A DNA stretch of 62,458 bases, counting the filler. It is 6 parts of 6 records of this genome, joined end to end, with 100 filler letters (N's around TTAATTAATTAA, not from the genome) between each part and the next. Parts side by side here need not be neighbours in the genome. Positions count along the whole stretch, not along the records: positions 34,908 to 42,156 come from SRR31147125_53296; 5 more parts are not named here. One strand, given 5' to 3'. Position numbers and translations under genes: made by a program. Under the pieces are notes generated by a model. It saw only the letters and a list, made by a program, of their open reading frames with translations, did not search any database and was not told the origin of the DNA. Positions 23,329 through 52,155 of the stretch are shown here, in pieces. The first letter of the stretch is position 1; every line of letters begins with the position of its first letter.

Positions 23329-23428
23329 NNNNNNNNNNNNNNNNNNNNNNNNNNNNNNNNNNNNNNNNNNNNTTAATTAATTAANNNNNNNNNNNNNNNN
23401 NNNNNNNNNNNNNNNNNNNNNNNNNNNN
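23329..23428. other. artificial contig spacer (N-run, TTAATTAATTAA, N-run)
   Basis: 12-mer with stops in all six frames flanked by Ns. Confidence 0.98.
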
Positions 23429-28574: not shown

Positions 28575-28674
28575 NNNNNNNNNNNNNNNNNNNNNNNNNN
28601 NNNNNNNNNNNNNNNNNNTTAATTAATTAANNNNNNNNNNNNNNNNNNNNNNNNNNNNNNNNNNNNNNNNNNNN
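28575..28674. other. artificial contig spacer
   Basis: N-run with TTAATTAATTAA. Confidence 0.98.
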
Positions 28675-34807: not shown

Positions 34808-34907
34808 NNNNNNNNNNNNNNNNNNNNNNNNNNNNNNNNNNNNNNNNNNNNTTAATTAATTAANNNNNNNNNNNNNNNNNNNNNNNNNNNNNNNNNNNNN
34901 NNNNNNN
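34808..34907. other. artificial contig spacer
   Basis: N-run with TTAATTAATTAA. Confidence 0.98.
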
Positions 34908-35700
34908 AAAAAAATATACTGATTATCAATTAGGAGATTGGGTTCTTTGGATTATTCCAGATATTTATTATAAAGCTGATGCTAAAAGTTTTACAGGTAA
35001 TATTATTATCAAAAATAAATATGGTAGCACAATAGAAACATCAACTGTTTTACGTTCCCCATATCCAAATAAAAAAATAAAAAACATATCTATGAGAAAC
35101 GGAAAATTTCGCTTATATGGTATTCCTTTGATTTTTAAATCTTTCGACGAACTTTGCAATGTTTCTGAAATAATAATTAAATGGCATATATGTGATGAAT
35201 GGGAATGGTTAAAACATAATGAATCAGACCCTTTCATGTTGCATTCCCAAACATTAATAGTAAAATATATATTATCATTTGAGAGAAATAATGTTAATCC
35301 TAAATTTCGCTTTTTTACAGTGTATTCAAAAGACACCCTTTTTAACCCTTATTTCAAAGAAAACGAATTTGAAACAAATAAACAAAAAACTAAAGAATAT
35401 TTTAATCAATTTGATTTTGCTGTTATTTGCAATGGACATATCTTATATGATGAATTACAACAAAAAGAAAAAGCTACTATATATGAAACTTGTACATTAA
35501 AAGATTTTGCCATTACAGATGAAATTAAAGAAAGAAAGATTCTTAAAAATTTAGTATCATTAATTCCTTCTTTTCAGGATTTTAAGACAATACTAACCCT
35601 TCTTTCATTAAGAAATAAAGTTGATTTAACTCTTTCTTATTATGAAAAAACTGAAACTCTCAAACCGGAATACATGGCTGATTTTTCGAGAGGATATTAA
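34908..35700 (+). CDS. hypothetical protein, 5' end cut
   Basis: Frame of ORF 35092-35700 stays open to the contig edge (over 260 codons in very AT-rich DNA); no family recognised. Confidence 0.65.
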
Positions 35701-35825
35701 TTAGAGTTGGATATATTAGATATCAATCTTTATTATAAACCCAAATTAAATTATCGATAATTCATCTATTATATGATAAAATAAGAGTGTTATATCTTTG
35801 CTCTAACTTGGATATAACACTTTTC

Positions 35826-35858
35826 AAAAAAAGAGGGACTAACCACCCCTCTTTTTTT
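35826..35858. terminator. bidirectional intrinsic terminator
   Basis: AAAAAAAGAGGG-ACTAACCAC-CCCTCTTTTTTT; the stem extends by G-U pairs on the minus strand. Confidence 0.85.
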
Positions 35859-35859
35859 A

Positions 35860-36315
35860 TTGTAACCAATAAATAAAGTCTGCCCTAGAAAGGGTAAAAA
35901 TAGCCTATATACTCATAAATTCCGTTATTGTGGCCACTTTTACCTGTCCTCAAAAGTACCAGGCATTGTTCTGGTACTTATTTCGGACTTTTAAGCACTT
36001 AAAACATGATAAATCATGTACAGTCCGCAGGATCCTTTGCATTTTGCACGGTATTGCTCCTTTTTTAAGGCTTAAAAACATCGTTATCTAGCATAAATTC
36101 TTATGCTGCACAACTATGGTCCTGTAAAAGCAGGACTAATTTGTGTTCGATAACTCCATAAATCACTTAATCAGCCAAGACCTTTTAATGCTTTATATAA
36201 CATTTGGGCAATCTTTATTCATTTGCTACACTAATCGCCCCTACGTTGCAATTTGTTGGCTTTGCCACATTCATGTTGACGGTTGTGTTTACTTATGGTA
36301 AAATTAGTCAACACT
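35860..36315 (-). ncRNA. candidate large structured non-coding RNA (about 450 nt), family unassigned
   Basis: No ORF of 60 aa or more; more than 10 nested helices; several G-U pairs favour the minus strand; ends at an intrinsic terminator. Confidence 0.6.
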
Positions 36316-36339
36316 ACAAATAAAAATACATAATATAAT

Positions 36340-36373
36340 AAAAAAGAGCGGTCTGATAAACGACTGCTCTTTT
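36340..36373. terminator. intrinsic terminator downstream of the Tad operon
   Basis: AAAAAAGAGCGGTC-TGATAAAC-GACTGCTCTTTT. Confidence 0.8.
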
Positions 36374-36407
36374 GCTAATTGGTCAATATAGTTCTTTTCG
36401 GAATGAG

Positions 36408-36947
36408 TTAATAGTCACGTCCTGTAACTTGATATACTGCGTATCTGATAATATCCGTTGACTGTCCACCAAACACCTTATTATGTATAGGTACATCACC
36501 TGCATTTAGTATGATAATAACCGACGGTTTCCCGATGGTTATATTACCTGTTACTAAATCATTGTGAGTATGAGGATAAGACACAGGTGTTGATGATGTC
36601 AGCGAACCATCAACATACATCTCACATCCAGTATCATCATAAAAGTATACTGTATACATCAATGTATCTGTAAAATATTCACCATCAATAGGTGTCATGG
36701 CATCGTCTAGGTTAAGTTCTTTTTTTAAGTATGAAGTTATGGCTTCCATGCAAACGTCTTTATCAAATACATATATACCTCGTCCATAATCTTGCTTTTC
36801 TAGGTACTGAGTACCAATAACAGCCGTTTCATAGGCGATATGCTCTATATCATCTGATTTTCTGCTTACAAGCCGCATATCCATATTATCTAAGAATAAA
36901 CCTAACGCAAAGAATACTGCCACTACTGCATATAGTATTTTATTAAT
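36408..36947 (-). CDS. Tad-locus membrane-anchored protein (pseudopilin/TadG-like); probable ATT start
   Basis: N-terminal hydrophobic helix (NKILYAVVAVFFALGLFL); last gene of the pilus operon; AAAGGAGTG RBS upstream of ATT 36947. Confidence 0.55.
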   Translation of the reverse strand: MNKILYAVVAVFFALGLFLDNMDMRLVSRKSDDIEHIAYETAVIGTQYLEKQDYGRGIYVFDKDVCMEAITSYLKKELNLDDAMTPIDGEYFTDTLMYTVYFYDDTGCEMYVDGSLTSSTPVSYPHTHNDLVTGNITIGKPSVIIILNAGDVPIHNKVFGGQSTDIIRYAVYQVTGRDY

Positions 36948-36981
36948 ATTAACTCACTCCTTTCTCATGCAAATCGGTTTA

Positions 36982-37137
36982 TTAGCCGATTCCGCCAACT
37001 TCTGTTATAGTTTCTGTAACAACGTCTGATGCTGCACCTGCTAGAGTACCATCAGTATTTCCGCCTACACCTACAACTAGTGCAAGAATTGCTATTACTA
37101 AAACTATCCAACCATATTCAGATATAAGTTCTTTCAT
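36982..37137 (-). CDS. flp: Flp-type pilin, 51 aa (missing from the ORF track)
   Basis: MKELISEYGWIVLVIAILALVVGVGG...: EYG Flp motif followed by a hydrophobic helix; AAAGGAG RBS; inside the tad operon. Confidence 0.75.
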   Translation of the reverse strand: MKELISEYGWIVLVIAILALVVGVGGNTDGTLAGAASDVVTETITEVGGIG

Positions 37138-37241
37138 TTAAGTTTCTCCTTTCCTAATTTATTTTACTTGTAATATGTTTCCTTTCTAGATTATCTACCC
37201 ATTTATATATAACACACTAATAGCGATTGCTATTTTAGTGG

Positions 37242-37646
37242 TTAAGGCAATCTTTCACTAGTGACACTACCGCTACAAGTATAAGGTACTGGTTCAGACT
37301 GATTGAAGATTACACCACCAGCAAATGCATTATTTATTAATATTGTTACCGAAAACTCAATCAATTCTCTTTCATCGTAATGGTCAATCGTCCTATACCT
37401 TGGCACTGTCGTAAGCGTATATGTTATTTCCGATGCATCTATCCCTCGAATATTATCTATATCAGCCAACATATCATTTATTATCTCTGGTGTAAAATAC
37501 CCCTCAATCCTTGCTTTTTCAGCGTAAGTATAAACGATATCTTCAAAGATTTCAATTCTTGCCGCATTTGATGTGTCAATTATGCCTTGGAGTACAAATG
37601 ATAATAATAAAACAATTATTACACTTCCTACTATTAAATCTTTCAT
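37242..37646 (-). CDS. TadE-like pseudopilin
   Basis: N-terminal TM helix, AEKARIEGYFT motif, C-terminal VTSERLP; located after tadB/tadC. Confidence 0.6.
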   Translation of the reverse strand: MKDLIVGSVIIVLLLSFVLQGIIDTSNAARIEIFEDIVYTYAEKARIEGYFTPEIINDMLADIDNIRGIDASEITYTLTTVPRYRTIDHYDERELIEFSVTILINNAFAGGVIFNQSEPVPYTCSGSVTSERLP

Positions 37647-37657
37647 ATTTTATACCT

Positions 37658-38482
37658 CTAATATCCGTACATCATTTGCATACTTTCATTTAACACGATG
37701 AATATAAATATCATCATCATAATCATAAATATTGCAATGTTCAGCGTGAAGAACCTCACTCCATTTTTTCTATCGTCGCTTTCTTTTTGTGTCTGCCGTC
37801 TTGCAACTATTTTATCTAGGTAAAGGTCTACCTGCTCCGAAAACTCAGCGGTGTTAACATCATCAAGTTTGTGTAAAATGCTCCCTAATTCCTTTGCCTC
37901 GGTTGTTCCAATTTCAGCTATAAATTCTTCAATTAAATCTTCTTTATTCGTGTTATTCCATCCTTGAAATACCTTGTTTAAGTTAGGTTCGATTATAGTG
38001 CAACCACTAGCAATTTTCATTAATATATCCAAGCTGTTGCTTTGATAATCATTAACCGCTAATGTCTTAATCACTAATAACGACTGGTATATTTCTCCTT
38101 GAATTTTTACATTATTACCTGCAAATTTTCTTTTAAACCACGATATTATCCGTGTACCGCTTTTCGGTGTTATCATCAAAACTACTAATACAGAAATAAC
38201 AAACTCTAATATCGGCATTCGTTTTGTTGTTGAGGCAATTAATATCAAATATGTAATTACCAATACACTTATTATCGCCTGTGCTCTGCGGTATAGGGAA
38301 GGACTTATATTCAACCCTACTAGTTTAAGATATTTTACGTATATCTTCTTATTTTCTTTTTCTTTTGTTAGTCTATTTCGTCTTGCTCCCATTGTTTGTA
38401 GGTCTGGAAGTTTTAACAAAACTACAATACCTGCACAAACAATGATTATTAAATTAACAAATGCCTCTGCATTTCTAAGCAT
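37658..38482 (-). CDS. TadC-like (GspF family) pilus platform protein
   Basis: TM helices around a helical domain (FIAEIGTTEAKELGSIL); second membrane gene after the ATPase. Confidence 0.65.
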   Translation of the reverse strand: MLRNAEAFVNLIIIVCAGIVVLLKLPDLQTMGARRNRLTKEKENKKIYVKYLKLVGLNISPSLYRRAQAIISVLVITYLILIASTTKRMPILEFVISVLVVLMITPKSGTRIISWFKRKFAGNNVKIQGEIYQSLLVIKTLAVNDYQSNSLDILMKIASGCTIIEPNLNKVFQGWNNTNKEDLIEEFIAEIGTTEAKELGSILHKLDDVNTAEFSEQVDLYLDKIVARRQTQKESDDRKNGVRFFTLNIAIFMIMMMIFIFIVLNESMQMMYGY

Positions 38483-38493
38483 TATTCACTCCT

Positions 38494-39429
38494 TTACAAG
38501 TCATACTTTCCGAGTTTTATCAATCTTCCATATATTATTGCAACAATATACAATATAACTGCGGCAATAAACATTTGAAATGCCAAAGGTATCTCGAATT
38601 GCTTTTTTATCATTTCAAATAATGTAAATCCATATATTCTACCGCCATACCACATAATAACTACATAACACATTGGTATAAATATTCTAAGAATTACAAA
38701 CGCTTCATTGTTATATCTTTTAGTCCCCTCATTAGTTTCATTTACCTTTTTAAACATTTCAATGATTTTATTAAGTTCTGGTGTAACATCCTCTCCATCC
38801 CACACAGCTGAAAAAATAGCGTGTTTCAATATCATGCTCCAATTCGTATTGTAAGCAAAGTGCATTTCTTCTAGCACCTCTGTTGTTCTTTCAGCTGTGT
38901 TCGCTGTCTTAATATCCAATGCTAACTTAGTGAATATTCTTCTTGAATAAGGATTCTCTAATGTTACTGCTATTGTATCTATCGCCAATTCCATATCTTT
39001 ATTGTGCATATGATAATTATTCAAAAGAGAAATAATAATTTTTTCACCATCATAACTGCCTTTTAATCTTAATTCTTCTAGTCTAATTCTCTTTATTATC
39101 AATGGCATTATTCCAACTACTAGACTTACCATGATTGTCATCATATTTATACTCGTAAAGTAAGTTACAGTAACTAGCGATATAATGAAAACGATAACAC
39201 ACAATATTATTATATTGTCGGCGCTTAACCCTGTTATAGCATCAAATGAAAGCAATCTTGAAAGAACTCCTTTGTTTGCACTTTTATCCGCTGACAAAGC
39301 AAGCCTTTTTCTCTTACTTCTTACGTTTTTAAAGTATCCTAATATGTTTTTTCCTAAAGCGAACCATAATGCTCCAAATACTATCAAAGCAAATAATATG
39401 TCAAGTAACGTTATCATTGATTTACTCAT
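38494..39429 (-). CDS. TadB-like (GspF family) pilus platform protein
   Basis: TadB topology: N-terminal TM, two TMs, helical domain, two C-terminal TMs; follows the ATPase. Confidence 0.65.
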   Translation of the reverse strand: MSKSMITLLDILFALIVFGALWFALGKNILGYFKNVRSKRKRLALSADKSANKGVLSRLLSFDAITGLSADNIIILCVIVFIISLVTVTYFTSINMMTIMVSLVVGIMPLIIKRIRLEELRLKGSYDGEKIIISLLNNYHMHNKDMELAIDTIAVTLENPYSRRIFTKLALDIKTANTAERTTEVLEEMHFAYNTNWSMILKHAIFSAVWDGEDVTPELNKIIEMFKKVNETNEGTKRYNNEAFVILRIFIPMCYVVIMWYGGRIYGFTLFEMIKKQFEIPLAFQMFIAAVILYIVAIIYGRLIKLGKYDL

Positions 39430-39430
39430 A

Positions 39431-40951
39431 TTAGTTTCCTTTCTTGTAGATTATGTGTGCTTTCTTTTTATCACTAGCCATAGGGTATAATTCTGCTAGT
39501 TTATCAAGTTCTTTTTTGAACCCTATATAAGCGTTGTAATCTTCGTACTGTGCAAATTCCTCTTTATCCTTGCCAATTTCCGGATTAAACTCCCACCTAT
39601 CATCTAGCGGATAATAAAGGCATATAGGCACTGATGTGATTAAACCCTTTGCTCTGTCGTGTCTTACTTCATGTATAGCTTTTAATTTCTTTACACTGTT
39701 ATTTTCATATGTTTGTGTCAATTCTATTACAAACTGGAACGAGTTTGCTACTTTAAATATTGTTGTTTCTTGTGTACCATTGCCATTATAGTTAATAATT
39801 TCATCTGTAATATCTAATACTACATTTTTGCCATCCGTGCTGTGCATTGTAGTTTTGCATCGATGTGTACCTTTATTTGCAACTTTAACCATTAATTCAA
39901 ACTCATTACCTTCACGTGCCTCTGCCATGATTATATAATTGGCATCTGAACGCATGACATGTGCTATTAACTTTTTACGTTCTTCTTCATCTTCTGGCAT
40001 TAGCAACTGCATATTAGGCGCAGACGGCATTAATTCATGCAGTCTTATTTCGTTTGTAACCTCAATCATTAATCCTTCAGCTGTTTTTTTCTCTCCTTTT
40101 TGCCATACAATCAGCCATGTTGTTTTACCACTTCTCACCTGTCCAGTGAATATCACATTAAATCCAACTCGGCTAAATAGTTTAAAGAAATCTATGCTTT
40201 CTACTGGAATTGTGGAAAGAGCAGCTTGTTCTTCCCATGTCAATTCATCTGCTGTATATTTTCTCAAAACAACTACATCCTGTCCTTGTTTTGTCAGCTG
40301 ATTTGTGAACATGGTTGCTCTTTCCCCTTTTGGAAAGTTTAATTCGATATAACTATCTCTGTTATTGCTTTCTGGTGCATTTAAAAGCATATTCTTCTTA
40401 AGCTGTGCTAATTGTTTTGGTTTCATTCTTTGTGGTTGTAATGTTAAGACACCATTAACAAGATAATATACCCTTTCACCAATAATTTTTGCTGATGATG
40501 ATTTATCAAACTTTTTAGTGAAAAAGTTTGATATACAACCTAACCCCCATACCTCGTGGTATATTGCCTCTGCTAAAGATGAATACCATTTTGGATAAGG
40601 AACATTTTGATATTTTTCTTTTTTCAAAAATTCTTCAATATGCGATATGAAGTAATCAACCTGTTCTGGTACTCCACGCAAAGCATCATATTGTATTTTA
40701 ATAGCCTCTTTACTTGCTTTTGTCTGCTTAGGATTATCTTCTTTTGTATCAGTATCATTTTGTGTTTTGATGTTTAGAATTGTATTAATATGTGCTAGAG
40801 CAAATACACATAGTTTATCAAAGTCGATATTTTCATCCACTATGCTTATATTTTCCTTAACCTCATTACTCTTTACAATACTAAGATTTGCAAATTCATC
40901 CTCTAAATAATATCTTCTTACTTCATTACTTGATTGTCCCATACTAACCAC
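39431..40951 (-). CDS. TadA/CpaF family pilus assembly ATPase
   Basis: Walker A GQVRSGKTT, Asp box IEVTNEI, MRSDANYIIMAEAR (Walker B), His box TTMHS. Confidence 0.85.
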   Translation of the reverse strand: MVSMGQSSNEVRRYYLEDEFANLSIVKSNEVKENISIVDENIDFDKLCVFALAHINTILNIKTQNDTDTKEDNPKQTKASKEAIKIQYDALRGVPEQVDYFISHIEEFLKKEKYQNVPYPKWYSSLAEAIYHEVWGLGCISNFFTKKFDKSSSAKIIGERVYYLVNGVLTLQPQRMKPKQLAQLKKNMLLNAPESNNRDSYIELNFPKGERATMFTNQLTKQGQDVVVLRKYTADELTWEEQAALSTIPVESIDFFKLFSRVGFNVIFTGQVRSGKTTWLIVWQKGEKKTAEGLMIEVTNEIRLHELMPSAPNMQLLMPEDEEERKKLIAHVMRSDANYIIMAEAREGNEFELMVKVANKGTHRCKTTMHSTDGKNVVLDITDEIINYNGNGTQETTIFKVANSFQFVIELTQTYENNSVKKLKAIHEVRHDRAKGLITSVPICLYYPLDDRWEFNPEIGKDKEEFAQYEDYNAYIGFKKELDKLAELYPMASDKKKAHIIYKKGN

Positions 40952-42053
40952 CTATACCAAAGCGTCTTTTAGCAGTAGCAGGTGTTTCAAGAGGGATATG
41001 TATTTTATCAGCTATCGCAGTTATAACTTCATAAACAGCACGTTTATAGTTTCCTCCCACTTCATTTGTAGAAAACTCATTTAATGTTTTTCTTTCTAGT
41101 TCCGCTGTATACGCTAATCTATTAAATGGTATAGAACCAATCACCTTTAAACCAACCTGTGTTTCAAATTCTTTTTCGCTATATTCTTCAAATTCCTCTG
41201 TTTTATTAAGTATTACCTTTGCATCTGCTTCGTCAATATGCATTTTAATCAAACTATCTTCGTATTCATCTATTGCCTTTACATTTGCTGTGGATACCAT
41301 AAAAAGATGCTGACTTTGACCTATTGCTGTAACCATCATTTTGCTTGGAATACTGCCTAAATCTAGTACAACTAAATCAAATGCCTCAGCGCATACTTTT
41401 ATCGTTTCTATTATTTCAAATTCAGTATATTCAATATAACCGTCCATGCCGTGCATATATGCAATTACATTTCCTTTTGCATCATTTTCTTTCTTATCCA
41501 AGGCTAATGTTTCCATTGCTTTTTTAGCATTAAAAACCTTGTTTTCTACCCTGCGCATAACACTATTAAATGTAGGTAGCATTTCTGGTGCAAATTCTAA
41601 TCCCTTAGTCAATGTAAAAGACAATACAGCTACATTAAGTTCGCTATATTGCTGTATATGCCTTGATATGCTTAACGCTATCATTGTAGTACCTACGTTC
41701 CTAGTCGCTCCTACAAAACCGATAACGTTGCCTAAAGCTGATTGCTCTCCAATTAGCGCTGTCGTTATTCTTTCTTTCATTTTCTTTTGGTCTTTCACCT
41801 TAACGACCTGCACAATGCGGTTATCCATATTATTTATTTTCTTATCAACCACATATATAATATTCAATTTATCAAAATGAAGAACATCATTGATTTCTTC
41901 AATATTTTTAATAGTTTCAGAATCTATTATGATAGAATCTTCAACTACATTTACGAAACCATCTTTATTATTATAAACTGTAACTTTGTCTGTGGTATCG
42001 ATATTCTGTATTAGATTTATCAAATTTTTGTCATTTGTTATTATTCTTTTCAT
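40944..42053 (-). CDS. TadZ/CpaE-like MinD/ParA-family pilus localisation protein
   Basis: Degenerate receiver-like N-terminus, deviant P-loop GATRNVGTTMIA, FDLVVLDLG, VILNK, IGSIPF. Confidence 0.75.
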   Translation of the reverse strand: MKRIITNDKNLINLIQNIDTTDKVTVYNNKDGFVNVVEDSIIIDSETIKNIEEINDVLHFDKLNIIYVVDKKINNMDNRIVQVVKVKDQKKMKERITTALIGEQSALGNVIGFVGATRNVGTTMIALSISRHIQQYSELNVAVLSFTLTKGLEFAPEMLPTFNSVMRRVENKVFNAKKAMETLALDKKENDAKGNVIAYMHGMDGYIEYTEFEIIETIKVCAEAFDLVVLDLGSIPSKMMVTAIGQSQHLFMVSTANVKAIDEYEDSLIKMHIDEADAKVILNKTEEFEEYSEKEFETQVGLKVIGSIPFNRLAYTAELERKTLNEFSTNEVGGNYKRAVYEVITAIADKIHIPLETPATAKRRFGIGG

Positions 42054-42156
42054 TTTTTCACCTTTCTTGACACGTTGTCTAATGTTCGTGTTTCTTAGCT
42101 TTTTCTGCCGGATCTTCTGCCGTTTTTAATGCTGAAGCAGATCATTTTCGAAAAAA

Positions 42157-42256
42157 NNNNNNNNNNNNNNNNNNNNNNNNNNNNNNNNNNNNNNNNNNNN
42201 TTAATTAATTAANNNNNNNNNNNNNNNNNNNNNNNNNNNNNNNNNNNNNNNNNNNN
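42157..42256. other. artificial contig spacer
   Basis: N-run with TTAATTAATTAA. Confidence 0.98.
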
Positions 42257-52055: not shown

Positions 52056-52155
52056 NNNNNNNNNNNNNNNNNNNNNNNNNNNNNNNNNNNNNNNNNNNNT
52101 TAATTAATTAANNNNNNNNNNNNNNNNNNNNNNNNNNNNNNNNNNNNNNNNNNNN
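52056..52155. other. artificial contig spacer
   Basis: N-run with TTAATTAATTAA. Confidence 0.98.

Follow-up and report, generated by a model that had tools for sequence, protein, structure and literature searches.

What kind of element occupies a gene-free spacer packed with nested palindromes, lying between two convergent genes at the end of a Tad-like pilus operon, is the question raised by positions 35860-36315 of the window, as the whole analysed stretch of 62,458 nucleotides (filler included) is called here. A first-pass annotation had read this sequence as a large structured non-coding RNA of an unassigned or new class, carried by a pilus-encoding mobile element of Bacillota. The structure is real, and it is an orphan. 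With a confidence that falls a little short of even, we regard the core as a MITE-like mosaic of palindromic repeat DNA, a non-autonomous mobile remnant lodged between the terminators of convergent genes. An origin as repeat DNA is favoured over an RNA gene because the structure is strand-symmetric, has a 29-nt inverted repeat at its termini and recurs in part, at 95-97% identity, in another contig of the sample.

The genomic context that can be used for an interpretation is restricted to a single contig. Five linkers, each composed of 44 N, TTAATTAATTAA and another 44 N (23329-23428, 28575-28674, 34808-34907, 42157-42256 and 52056-52155), join the six contigs which make up the window, and the spacer of interest sits in the contig at 34908-42156 (7,249 bp, GC 0.321), the remaining five having a GC content of 0.486-0.554. 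Since the contigs are concatenated, the apparent low-GC 'island' is an artefact, and so is any gene neighbourhood or GC island that is read across the linker positions. The low-GC contig may derive from another organism or replicon than its neighbours in the window.

This contig starts with a partial open frame, followed by an orphan ORF of 202 aa on the plus strand (35092-35700). Beyond the spacer, the minus strand carries a divergent Tad-like operon (36408-42053), which includes a CpaE/MinD-like protein, a CpaF/VirB11-like ATPase and membrane proteins as well as a 51-aa Flp-like ORF; the ORF that borders the spacer on the right (36408-36923, minus strand) is convergent with the 202-aa ORF. 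Judging from its sequence, the 51-aa ORF (36982-37137, minus strand) likely encodes an Flp-type pilin; it is hydrophobic and shows a weak NCBIfam match of the PRK13682 type (E 5e-4). The top relative of the CpaF-like ATPase among 5.8 billion proteins is 52% identical, most of its partner proteins in the operon are without a Pfam family, and the nearest ATPase loci belong to MAGs labelled Pirellulales, Actinomycetota and Clostridia. For the 202-aa protein, a search of proteins of 111-354 residues gave no homologue at E<=0.01, PADLOC and NCBIfam gave no family match, and the PHROG matches are weak and of unknown function. Viral contigs held no relatives of this protein or of the ATPase alignment, and the proteins within the 7.2 kb of context include no replication, relaxase or recombinase gene or family match. 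An ATPase with at most 52% identity together with an orphan 202-aa protein indicates that the lineage is poorly sampled, and these sequence features point to an unsampled low-GC lineage as host. The setting in a mobile element of Bacillota was not borne out, the presumed island being a separate contig of a poorly sampled lineage.

The proposed absence of genes holds true. The spacer between the convergent ORFs (35701-36407) comprises 707 nt, and its longest ORF starting with ATG, GTG or TTG has 53 aa; from stop to stop, the maximum is 100 aa under table 4 and 84 aa with TAG read as Q. As none of the six small spacer ORFs tested has a Pfam match at E<=1 and recoding opens no long frame, small protein genes were ruled out. 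The two bracketing terminators are equally present. On the left, a two-way intrinsic-terminator-like hairpin (35826-35858, both strands) consists of an A run, a GAGGG/CCCTC stem and a T run, with 12-nt arms that are 100% complementary and fold z-scores of -4.0 on the plus and -4.2 on the minus strand. On the right, a second such hairpin (36340-36373, both strands; z -6.4 on plus and -5.7 on minus), likewise with A and T runs, closes the Tad-like operon on the minus strand; its single G-U pair on the plus strand is an A-C mismatch on the minus strand. A consensus terminator scan named 36117-36138 on the plus strand and neither of these two hairpins. A further hairpin with 14-bp arms (35783-35824; inverted repeat 93% complementary; z -5.9 on plus) immediately precedes the left terminator and belongs to the 3' region of ORF 35092-35700.

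Each side of the core is closed by a hairpin that looks like a terminator in both directions, and the consensus promoter sites reach only 10/12 on the plus and 9/12 on the minus strand. The former, the best sigma-70-like site of the region by consensus match only (36276-36304, plus strand; TTGACG, 17 nt, and TAAAAT preceded by TG), points outward, at the right terminator; a plus-strand RNA of about 65 nt could start from it and would be antisense to any transcript coming from the operon side. The latter is the one promoter-like site on the minus strand, weak and located inside the right terminator. The position outside both terminators of convergent genes is a spot tolerant of insertions, which counts for a MITE-like origin.

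That the sequence folds better than shuffled controls, as the first-pass annotation supposed, was confirmed on both strands. The core (35860-36339) reaches z -5.0 on the plus and -5.3 on the minus strand with 0 of 100 shuffles as good, and the closed unit of 378 nt (35857-36234) reaches z -8.2 on the minus strand, at a folding energy of -118.5 kcal/mol, and -6.4 on the plus strand. With DNA parameters, the values for the unit are -6.6 (minus) and -4.9 (plus). In a scan of the whole contig (36 windows of 200 nt, 30 shuffles each), the signal is concentrated at 35708-36107 and at the right terminator, 36108-36307 being inconspicuous (z -0.6 and -1.2), and no significant structure is present at 36235-36339. 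Two windows inside genes, 36708-36907 (minus) and 38708-38907 (plus), had z-scores of about -3.8 and -4.2 in the same scan of 30 shuffles. The GC content of the unit (0.35) is no higher than that of the coding DNA of the contig (0.33-0.36), which again counts for a MITE-like repeat.

The unit is bounded by a long-range inverted repeat with 29-nt arms (35857-35885 and 36206-36234; 79% complementary), either a terminal inverted repeat or a closing helix. Its 23 Watson-Crick pairs out of 29 were equalled by 1 of 200 spacer shuffles on the plus strand and by none of 200 on the minus strand. When G-U pairs are allowed, the minus strand gains three and reaches 26/29 (0 of 200 shuffles), and the plus strand stays at 23/29, which was equalled by 59 of 200. 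Pairing of the arms was scored by an ungapped-window count, as RNAduplex was uninformative because huge internal loops are allowed. In the predicted folds, the arms form the outermost helix, 35861-85/36206-30, and it is this pairing, rather than the long-range pair 35875-81/36178-84 suggested before, that encloses the unit. Six additional helices are, like the outermost one, found in the MFE structures of both strands and are referred to as shared helices (n=7): 35892-905/35932-45, 35946-49/35985-88, 35952-63/35970-82, 35989-36003/36064-77, 36090-96/36101-07 and 36117-25/36130-38.

Inside the arms, a hairpin with a stem of 13-14 bp and a loop of 26 nt (35892-35945) contains 11 Watson-Crick pairs and two G-U pairs on the minus or one on the plus strand, and is significant only on the minus strand (z -2.85 with 3 of 200 shuffles as good, versus -1.03 and 28 of 200 on the plus strand). 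The hairpin domain at 35946-35988 combines a 4-bp base with a perfect stem of 9-12 bp, AGTACCAG/CTGGTACT (z -6.3 on minus, -4.95 on plus). It is followed by a 14-bp stem (35989-36077; 14 Watson-Crick pairs on either strand; z -2.7 on minus, -3.5 on plus) formed by two self-complementary 15-16-mers, TTTTAAG..CTTAAAA, which are direct repeats 74 nt apart (35989-36004 and 36062-36077). A hairpin with the perfect 7-bp apex AGCATAA/TTATGCT and an extended stem (36079-36118; z -4.65 on minus, -3.2 on plus), a hairpin of 6-9 bp that is terminator-like on the plus strand (36117-36138; z -5.6 on plus, -3.5 on minus) and an unstructured linker (36139-36205; z +0.66 on minus, +0.86 on plus) complete the closed unit. 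The dense nesting of helices described previously is thus found in part: 36090-96/36101-07 and the six other shared helices are common to both strands, and the stretch 36139-36205 is unstructured. The multibranch closures 36083-88/36149-54 and 36004-10/36013-19 appear in the plus-strand fold and are absent from the minus-strand fold. The hairpin 36273-80/36307-14 lies in a region (36273-36314) without significant folding (z -1.2 and -1.5), and the 8-bp pseudoknot corresponds, by estimate, to chance expectation in 480 AT-rich bases.

Which strand, if any, is the functional one was to be read from the G-U pairs, said to occur in several helices only on the minus strand. This applies to the long-range helix with its three G-U pairs and to the hairpin 35892-945; it does not extend to the shared helices as a whole, which are almost all perfectly Watson-Crick paired and contain 5 G-U pairs on the minus versus 4 on the plus strand. 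Folding even favours the plus strand at the stem 35989-36077 and at the hairpin 36117-36138. Most stems are perfect palindromes and as such uninformative on whether RNA or DNA is concerned. The strand symmetry, which includes folding with DNA parameters, and the almost entirely Watson-Crick pairing of the shared helices count for MITE-like repeat DNA. On the other hand, two observations fit an RNA better, namely the gain of three G-U pairs by the long-range helix on the minus strand only and the significance, on that strand only, of the hairpin 35892-945, which straddles an edge of one of the recurring sequence blocks discussed below.

These two observations belong to the alternative of an unclassified structured ncRNA gene of about 380-500 nt on the minus strand, which we hold to be possible, though unlikely. 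Transcription would start from the AT-rich stretch just after the terminator of the Tad operon and end at the terminator 35858-35826, with a 23-bp helix closing a multi-hairpin junction and a paralogue carrying a 1.3-kb insert in one hairpin apex. Consistent with such a gene are the z-score of the unit, more extreme on the minus (-8.2) than on the plus strand (-6.4), the superior closing helix when G-U pairs are counted (26/29 with 0/200 shuffles versus 23/29 with 59/200), the terminators on either side, the lack of an ORF in three genetic codes and a core whose GC content (0.35) is above that of the adjoining spacer 35701-35859 (0.25). Arguing against it, the sole promoter-like site on the minus strand is weak (9/12) and overlaps a terminator, two hairpins fold better on the plus strand with G-U counts being balanced, the 11-nt receptor half CCUAAG is absent from both strands and, by direct reading of the folds, no GNRA terminal loop is found. 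A minus-strand ncRNA is also compatible with a transcribed MITE.

Evidence of a different kind comes from a second, partial copy of the sequence. The contig is present in only one public sequencing run, which may be the source of the window and thus not independent, and no RNA run is listed among those containing it. In the assembly of this run, the core is split, with one contig ending at 35964 and the next beginning at 35938; both have a depth of about 73 and extend past the ends of the window contig. Compared with the window, the run contigs show one extra A at 35825 and one extra T at 42099, in homopolymer runs. Two stretches of the core, block A (35913-35995), whose left edge is straddled by the hairpin 35892-35945, and block B (36063-36124), recur in other contigs of this run. 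A 2213-nt contig (depth 76.5 versus about 73 at the locus) shows 2 differences from 35938-35995 and 3 from 36063-36124, which it matches in blocks of 58-62 nt at 95-97% identity with order and strand kept, and a 101-nt contig matches 35913-35964 with 1 difference and then diverges. In the 2213-nt contig, the blocks are separated by 1305 nt, as opposed to the 67 nt of the hairpin apex (35996-36062) here. The similarity ends abruptly on all sides, and the 29-nt terminal arms are not among the blocks.

Such high identity, breaking off abruptly, characterises repeated or mobile DNA and is unlike slowly diverged RNA paralogues, which speaks against the ncRNA gene. The 2213-nt contig could stem from a related organism in the sample rather than from the same genome, depth alone being indecisive; depth is not a copy number here, as surplus depth is also seen in coding bins.

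The inner limits of the similarity, 35995 and 36063, coincide with the TTTTAAG..CTTAAAA palindromes, which are possible protein-binding or recombination sites. Such sites are central to another explanation, distinctly improbable in our view, in which the core acts at the DNA level, either as a single-strand origin or transfer-related site belonging to a plasmid or conjugative element or as a recombination site; in the last variant, proteins would bind the two 15-16-mers, spaced 74 nt apart, on either side of a segment that can be exchanged. The strong folding as single-stranded DNA (z -6.6 and -4.9), the arrangement of the palindromic 15-16-mers as direct repeats, the end of similarity exactly at these repeats and the atypical GC content of the contig among its neighbours in the window all speak for such a site. 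This explanation is, however, met by 7.2 kb of sequence free of replication, relaxase and recombinase genes, by flanking proteins that match no such family and by collections of plasmids and phages that gave no match. Single-strand origins of the ssoA type, known from rolling-circle replicons, have a conserved loop hexamer, TAGCGT/A, and a Rep gene nearby; the motif TAGCG[T/A] is absent from both strands of the core, and the proteins of the 7.2-kb contig include no Rep-like family.

The core might also have no function, its palindromes being leftovers such as old terminators and decayed repeats and its fold the sum of unrelated hairpins. The unstructured stretches 36139-36205 and 36235-36339, the differing strand preference of the hairpins and the occurrence of two 200-nt windows with z of about -4 inside genes (30 shuffles) agree with this view, which is nevertheless improbable given a 29-nt long-range inverted repeat beyond chance, the extreme z-score of -8.2 of the closed unit and the retention of a part of it at 95-97% identity in the second contig.

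The preferred reading as a MITE-like repeat mosaic would accommodate these findings as follows. The element would be the 378-nt unit bounded by the 29-nt imperfect terminal inverted repeat and carrying five near-perfect hairpins, and its centre (35913-36124) is one copy of a sequence found at least once more in the sample. The other copy, with its 1305 nt in place of the 67-nt hairpin apex, has room for one gene of about 400 aa. Most simply, the copy described here would be an internally deleted derivative of an element of about 1.45 kb or, alternatively, would represent two adjoining repeat modules that were brought together. An enzyme encoded elsewhere would move or recombine it in trans. 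Any transcript would adopt a closed multi-hairpin rosette, a fold arising as a by-product of the DNA palindromes and not because an RNA was under selection. What we infer from the arrangement is mobility, the history of deletion and the location of the second copy in the same genome.

According to a review (PMC3184786), MITEs are recognised by a length not exceeding about 400 bp, inverted repeats at their ends, lack of a transposase and stable RNA stem-loops. The unit of 378 nt, in a spacer whose longest ORF of 53 aa has no Pfam match, possesses 29-nt arms of 79% complementarity (equalled by at most 1 of 200 shuffles) and a predicted fold of -118.5 kcal/mol at z -8.2; as for the several genomic copies and the ends shared with an autonomous IS that would be expected of a MITE, one further contig contains two internal blocks at 95-97% identity and not the terminal arms. 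Compared with bacterial MITEs such as Correia/nemis, ERIC/RU-1, RUP and the 288-bp IMU, as portrayed in the same review (PMC3184786), the element is alike in its 378 nt with a 29-nt terminal repeat, its intergenic location, the lack of a transposase ORF and the very stable predicted RNA stem-loop. It differs from them in that no clear target-site duplication is seen and the second copy consists of internal blocks only. Two points therefore argue against the MITE-like reading, the documentation of only one partial second copy that lacks the terminal arms, which should be the best-kept part in a MITE family, and the lack of a convincing target-site duplication; direct reading of the flanks of the unit found only the dinucleotide TA on both sides, which is uninformative at 25-35% GC.

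Other families of repeats show partial resemblance. REPs exist in hundreds of copies. Arrays of the REP/BIME type are, like the core, palindrome arrays between convergent genes and next to terminators that fold on both strands; the units here, however, are AT-rich, mutually unlike and enclosed by a long-range inverted repeat, and no RAYT gene is seen within the 7.2-kb contig. REPs themselves are about 35 nt long and G+C rich according to PMC3184786. The same review describes bcr5 (310 nt), a member of bcr group B from the Bacillus cereus group, as lying at either end of a gene cluster that includes a resolvase (PMC3184786). By this description only, bcr group B and the element have in common a structured repeat of about 300 nt, copies or parts of which bracket a gene-sized segment, as do blocks A and B, 1305 nt apart in the second contig; the host differs, being an unsampled low-GC lineage and not Bacillus.

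Known RNA families provide no assignment, in line with the earlier description of the core as unassigned. Rfam 15 covariance models, including those for OLE, GOLLD, ROOL, raiA, HEARO, group I/II introns, RNase P, tmRNA and T-box, identified no family at the gathering threshold in the whole window, and at E<=10 the region 35600-36500 yielded 12 matches, all far below threshold and none to a large ncRNA or an intron. The best of these, to Termite-leu (27.7 bits, E 0.001, gathering score 51), covers the hairpin and terminator at 35782-35871 (plus strand) in the left terminator region, outside the core, and probably reflects just two hairpins. Although OLE, GOLLD, ROOL, raiA and HEARO are alike in size class, lack of an ORF, number of helices and intergenic location, the core differs from them by having no covariance-model match even at E<=10 and no homologues, a GC content not above that of coding DNA, helices that are mostly perfect palindromes and no recognisable tertiary motifs. 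The absence of an Rfam match also tells against the ncRNA gene. A retron or a type III toxin-antitoxin RNA was ruled out, no PADLOC match being found for the six contig proteins scanned.

Homologues were sought in several collections. Distant-mode blastn of 35701-36407 gave no match in the plasmid and phage collections, and exact-word scans with a 22-mer and a 24-mer taken from the two blocks found no stretch in the JGI metagenomes or IMG/VR. Related Tad loci were fetched with an alignment of the query and 14 of the 120 listed ATPase homologues, which provided 80 loci with related ATPases of at most 45% identity; a contig search with the ATPase alone had given 128 pattern matches and no relatives. 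Against these 80 loci (1.2 Mb), the core produced three blastn matches of 27-37 nt (E 0.71) and none with nhmmer, and a structure model, a single-sequence covariance model of 195 positions and 48 pairs, found only the window itself, the next best match (16.4 bits, E 0.14) being far from the operon. Among 87 genomes of one class, the structure model had matches at E<=1 in 17 (best 0.005 per genome), which are noise, and blastn of the unit gave matches at E<=0.01 in seven (22-47 nt, best 4.2e-4 per genome), which are read as noise because 87 tests were made. Of five other genomes, four had blastn matches of the unit at E<=1 (best E 0.076), likewise noise. As no homologue was found by sequence or structure model in the 80 related loci and in 87-92 genomes, there is no covariation to assess, a further point against the ncRNA gene.

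The suggested association with pilus loci was not recovered either. Of the 80 loci, 15 contain a homologue of the last operon gene, and the top three of these (30-35% identity) are syntenic. In two of these loci, further genes come after the last common gene, and in the third a 1-kb spacer follows that is unstructured (z -0.47), so that a comparable element is absent from all three closest syntenic Tad loci. RNA homologues beside tad genes, which the first-pass annotation suggested looking for, were thus found in none of the 80 loci, and the link to a pilus-encoding mobile element is unsupported, the island resulting from the joining of contigs and the syntenic loci lacking the element. Nothing relevant on an RNA beside tad loci was present among the matches listed in a literature search of main texts. 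The lack of an ORF and of an Rfam family and the absence of an equivalent in the closest Tad loci count for a MITE-like repeat.

The 1305-nt segment of the second copy invites comparison with introns and related elements, as group I/II introns and IStrons can carry an ORF in a loop, and in the second copy about 1.3 kb takes the place of a hairpin apex. Class C group II introns start right after a terminator, and by analogy the unit, which starts directly after a terminator, would resemble them. Group I and II introns were, however, ruled out, with no such model among the 12 Rfam matches at E<=10; by reading, no domain-V-like hairpin is present, and the unit of 378 nt is too small for a group II intron. 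A more speculative scheme, very unlikely in our estimation, would nonetheless combine RNA and mobility in an orphan RNA-scaffolded mobile or cargo element, in which the 23-bp helix would close an RNA of about 380-500 nt on the minus strand that would possess a palindrome-bounded docking hairpin that holds the 1.3-kb cargo elsewhere. Such cargo would be a recombinase or nuclease gene, for instance, and the logic would be akin to that of introns with an ORF in a loop or of IS elements bearing a guide RNA.

As a MITE-like repeat, the core would be an ordinary genome component, and the locus illustrates that an extreme folding z-score alone does not mark an RNA gene in an AT-rich spacer. The apparent genomic island that turned out to be an artefact of concatenated contigs is a practical lesson. 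If the copy with the 1.3-kb segment encodes an enzyme that acts together with the structured sequence, a new small mobile element would be defined, in a lineage whose Tad ATPase shares no more than 52% identity with any of 5.8 billion proteins. An RNA-scaffolded cargo element, if true, would represent a new architecture in an unsampled low-GC lineage.
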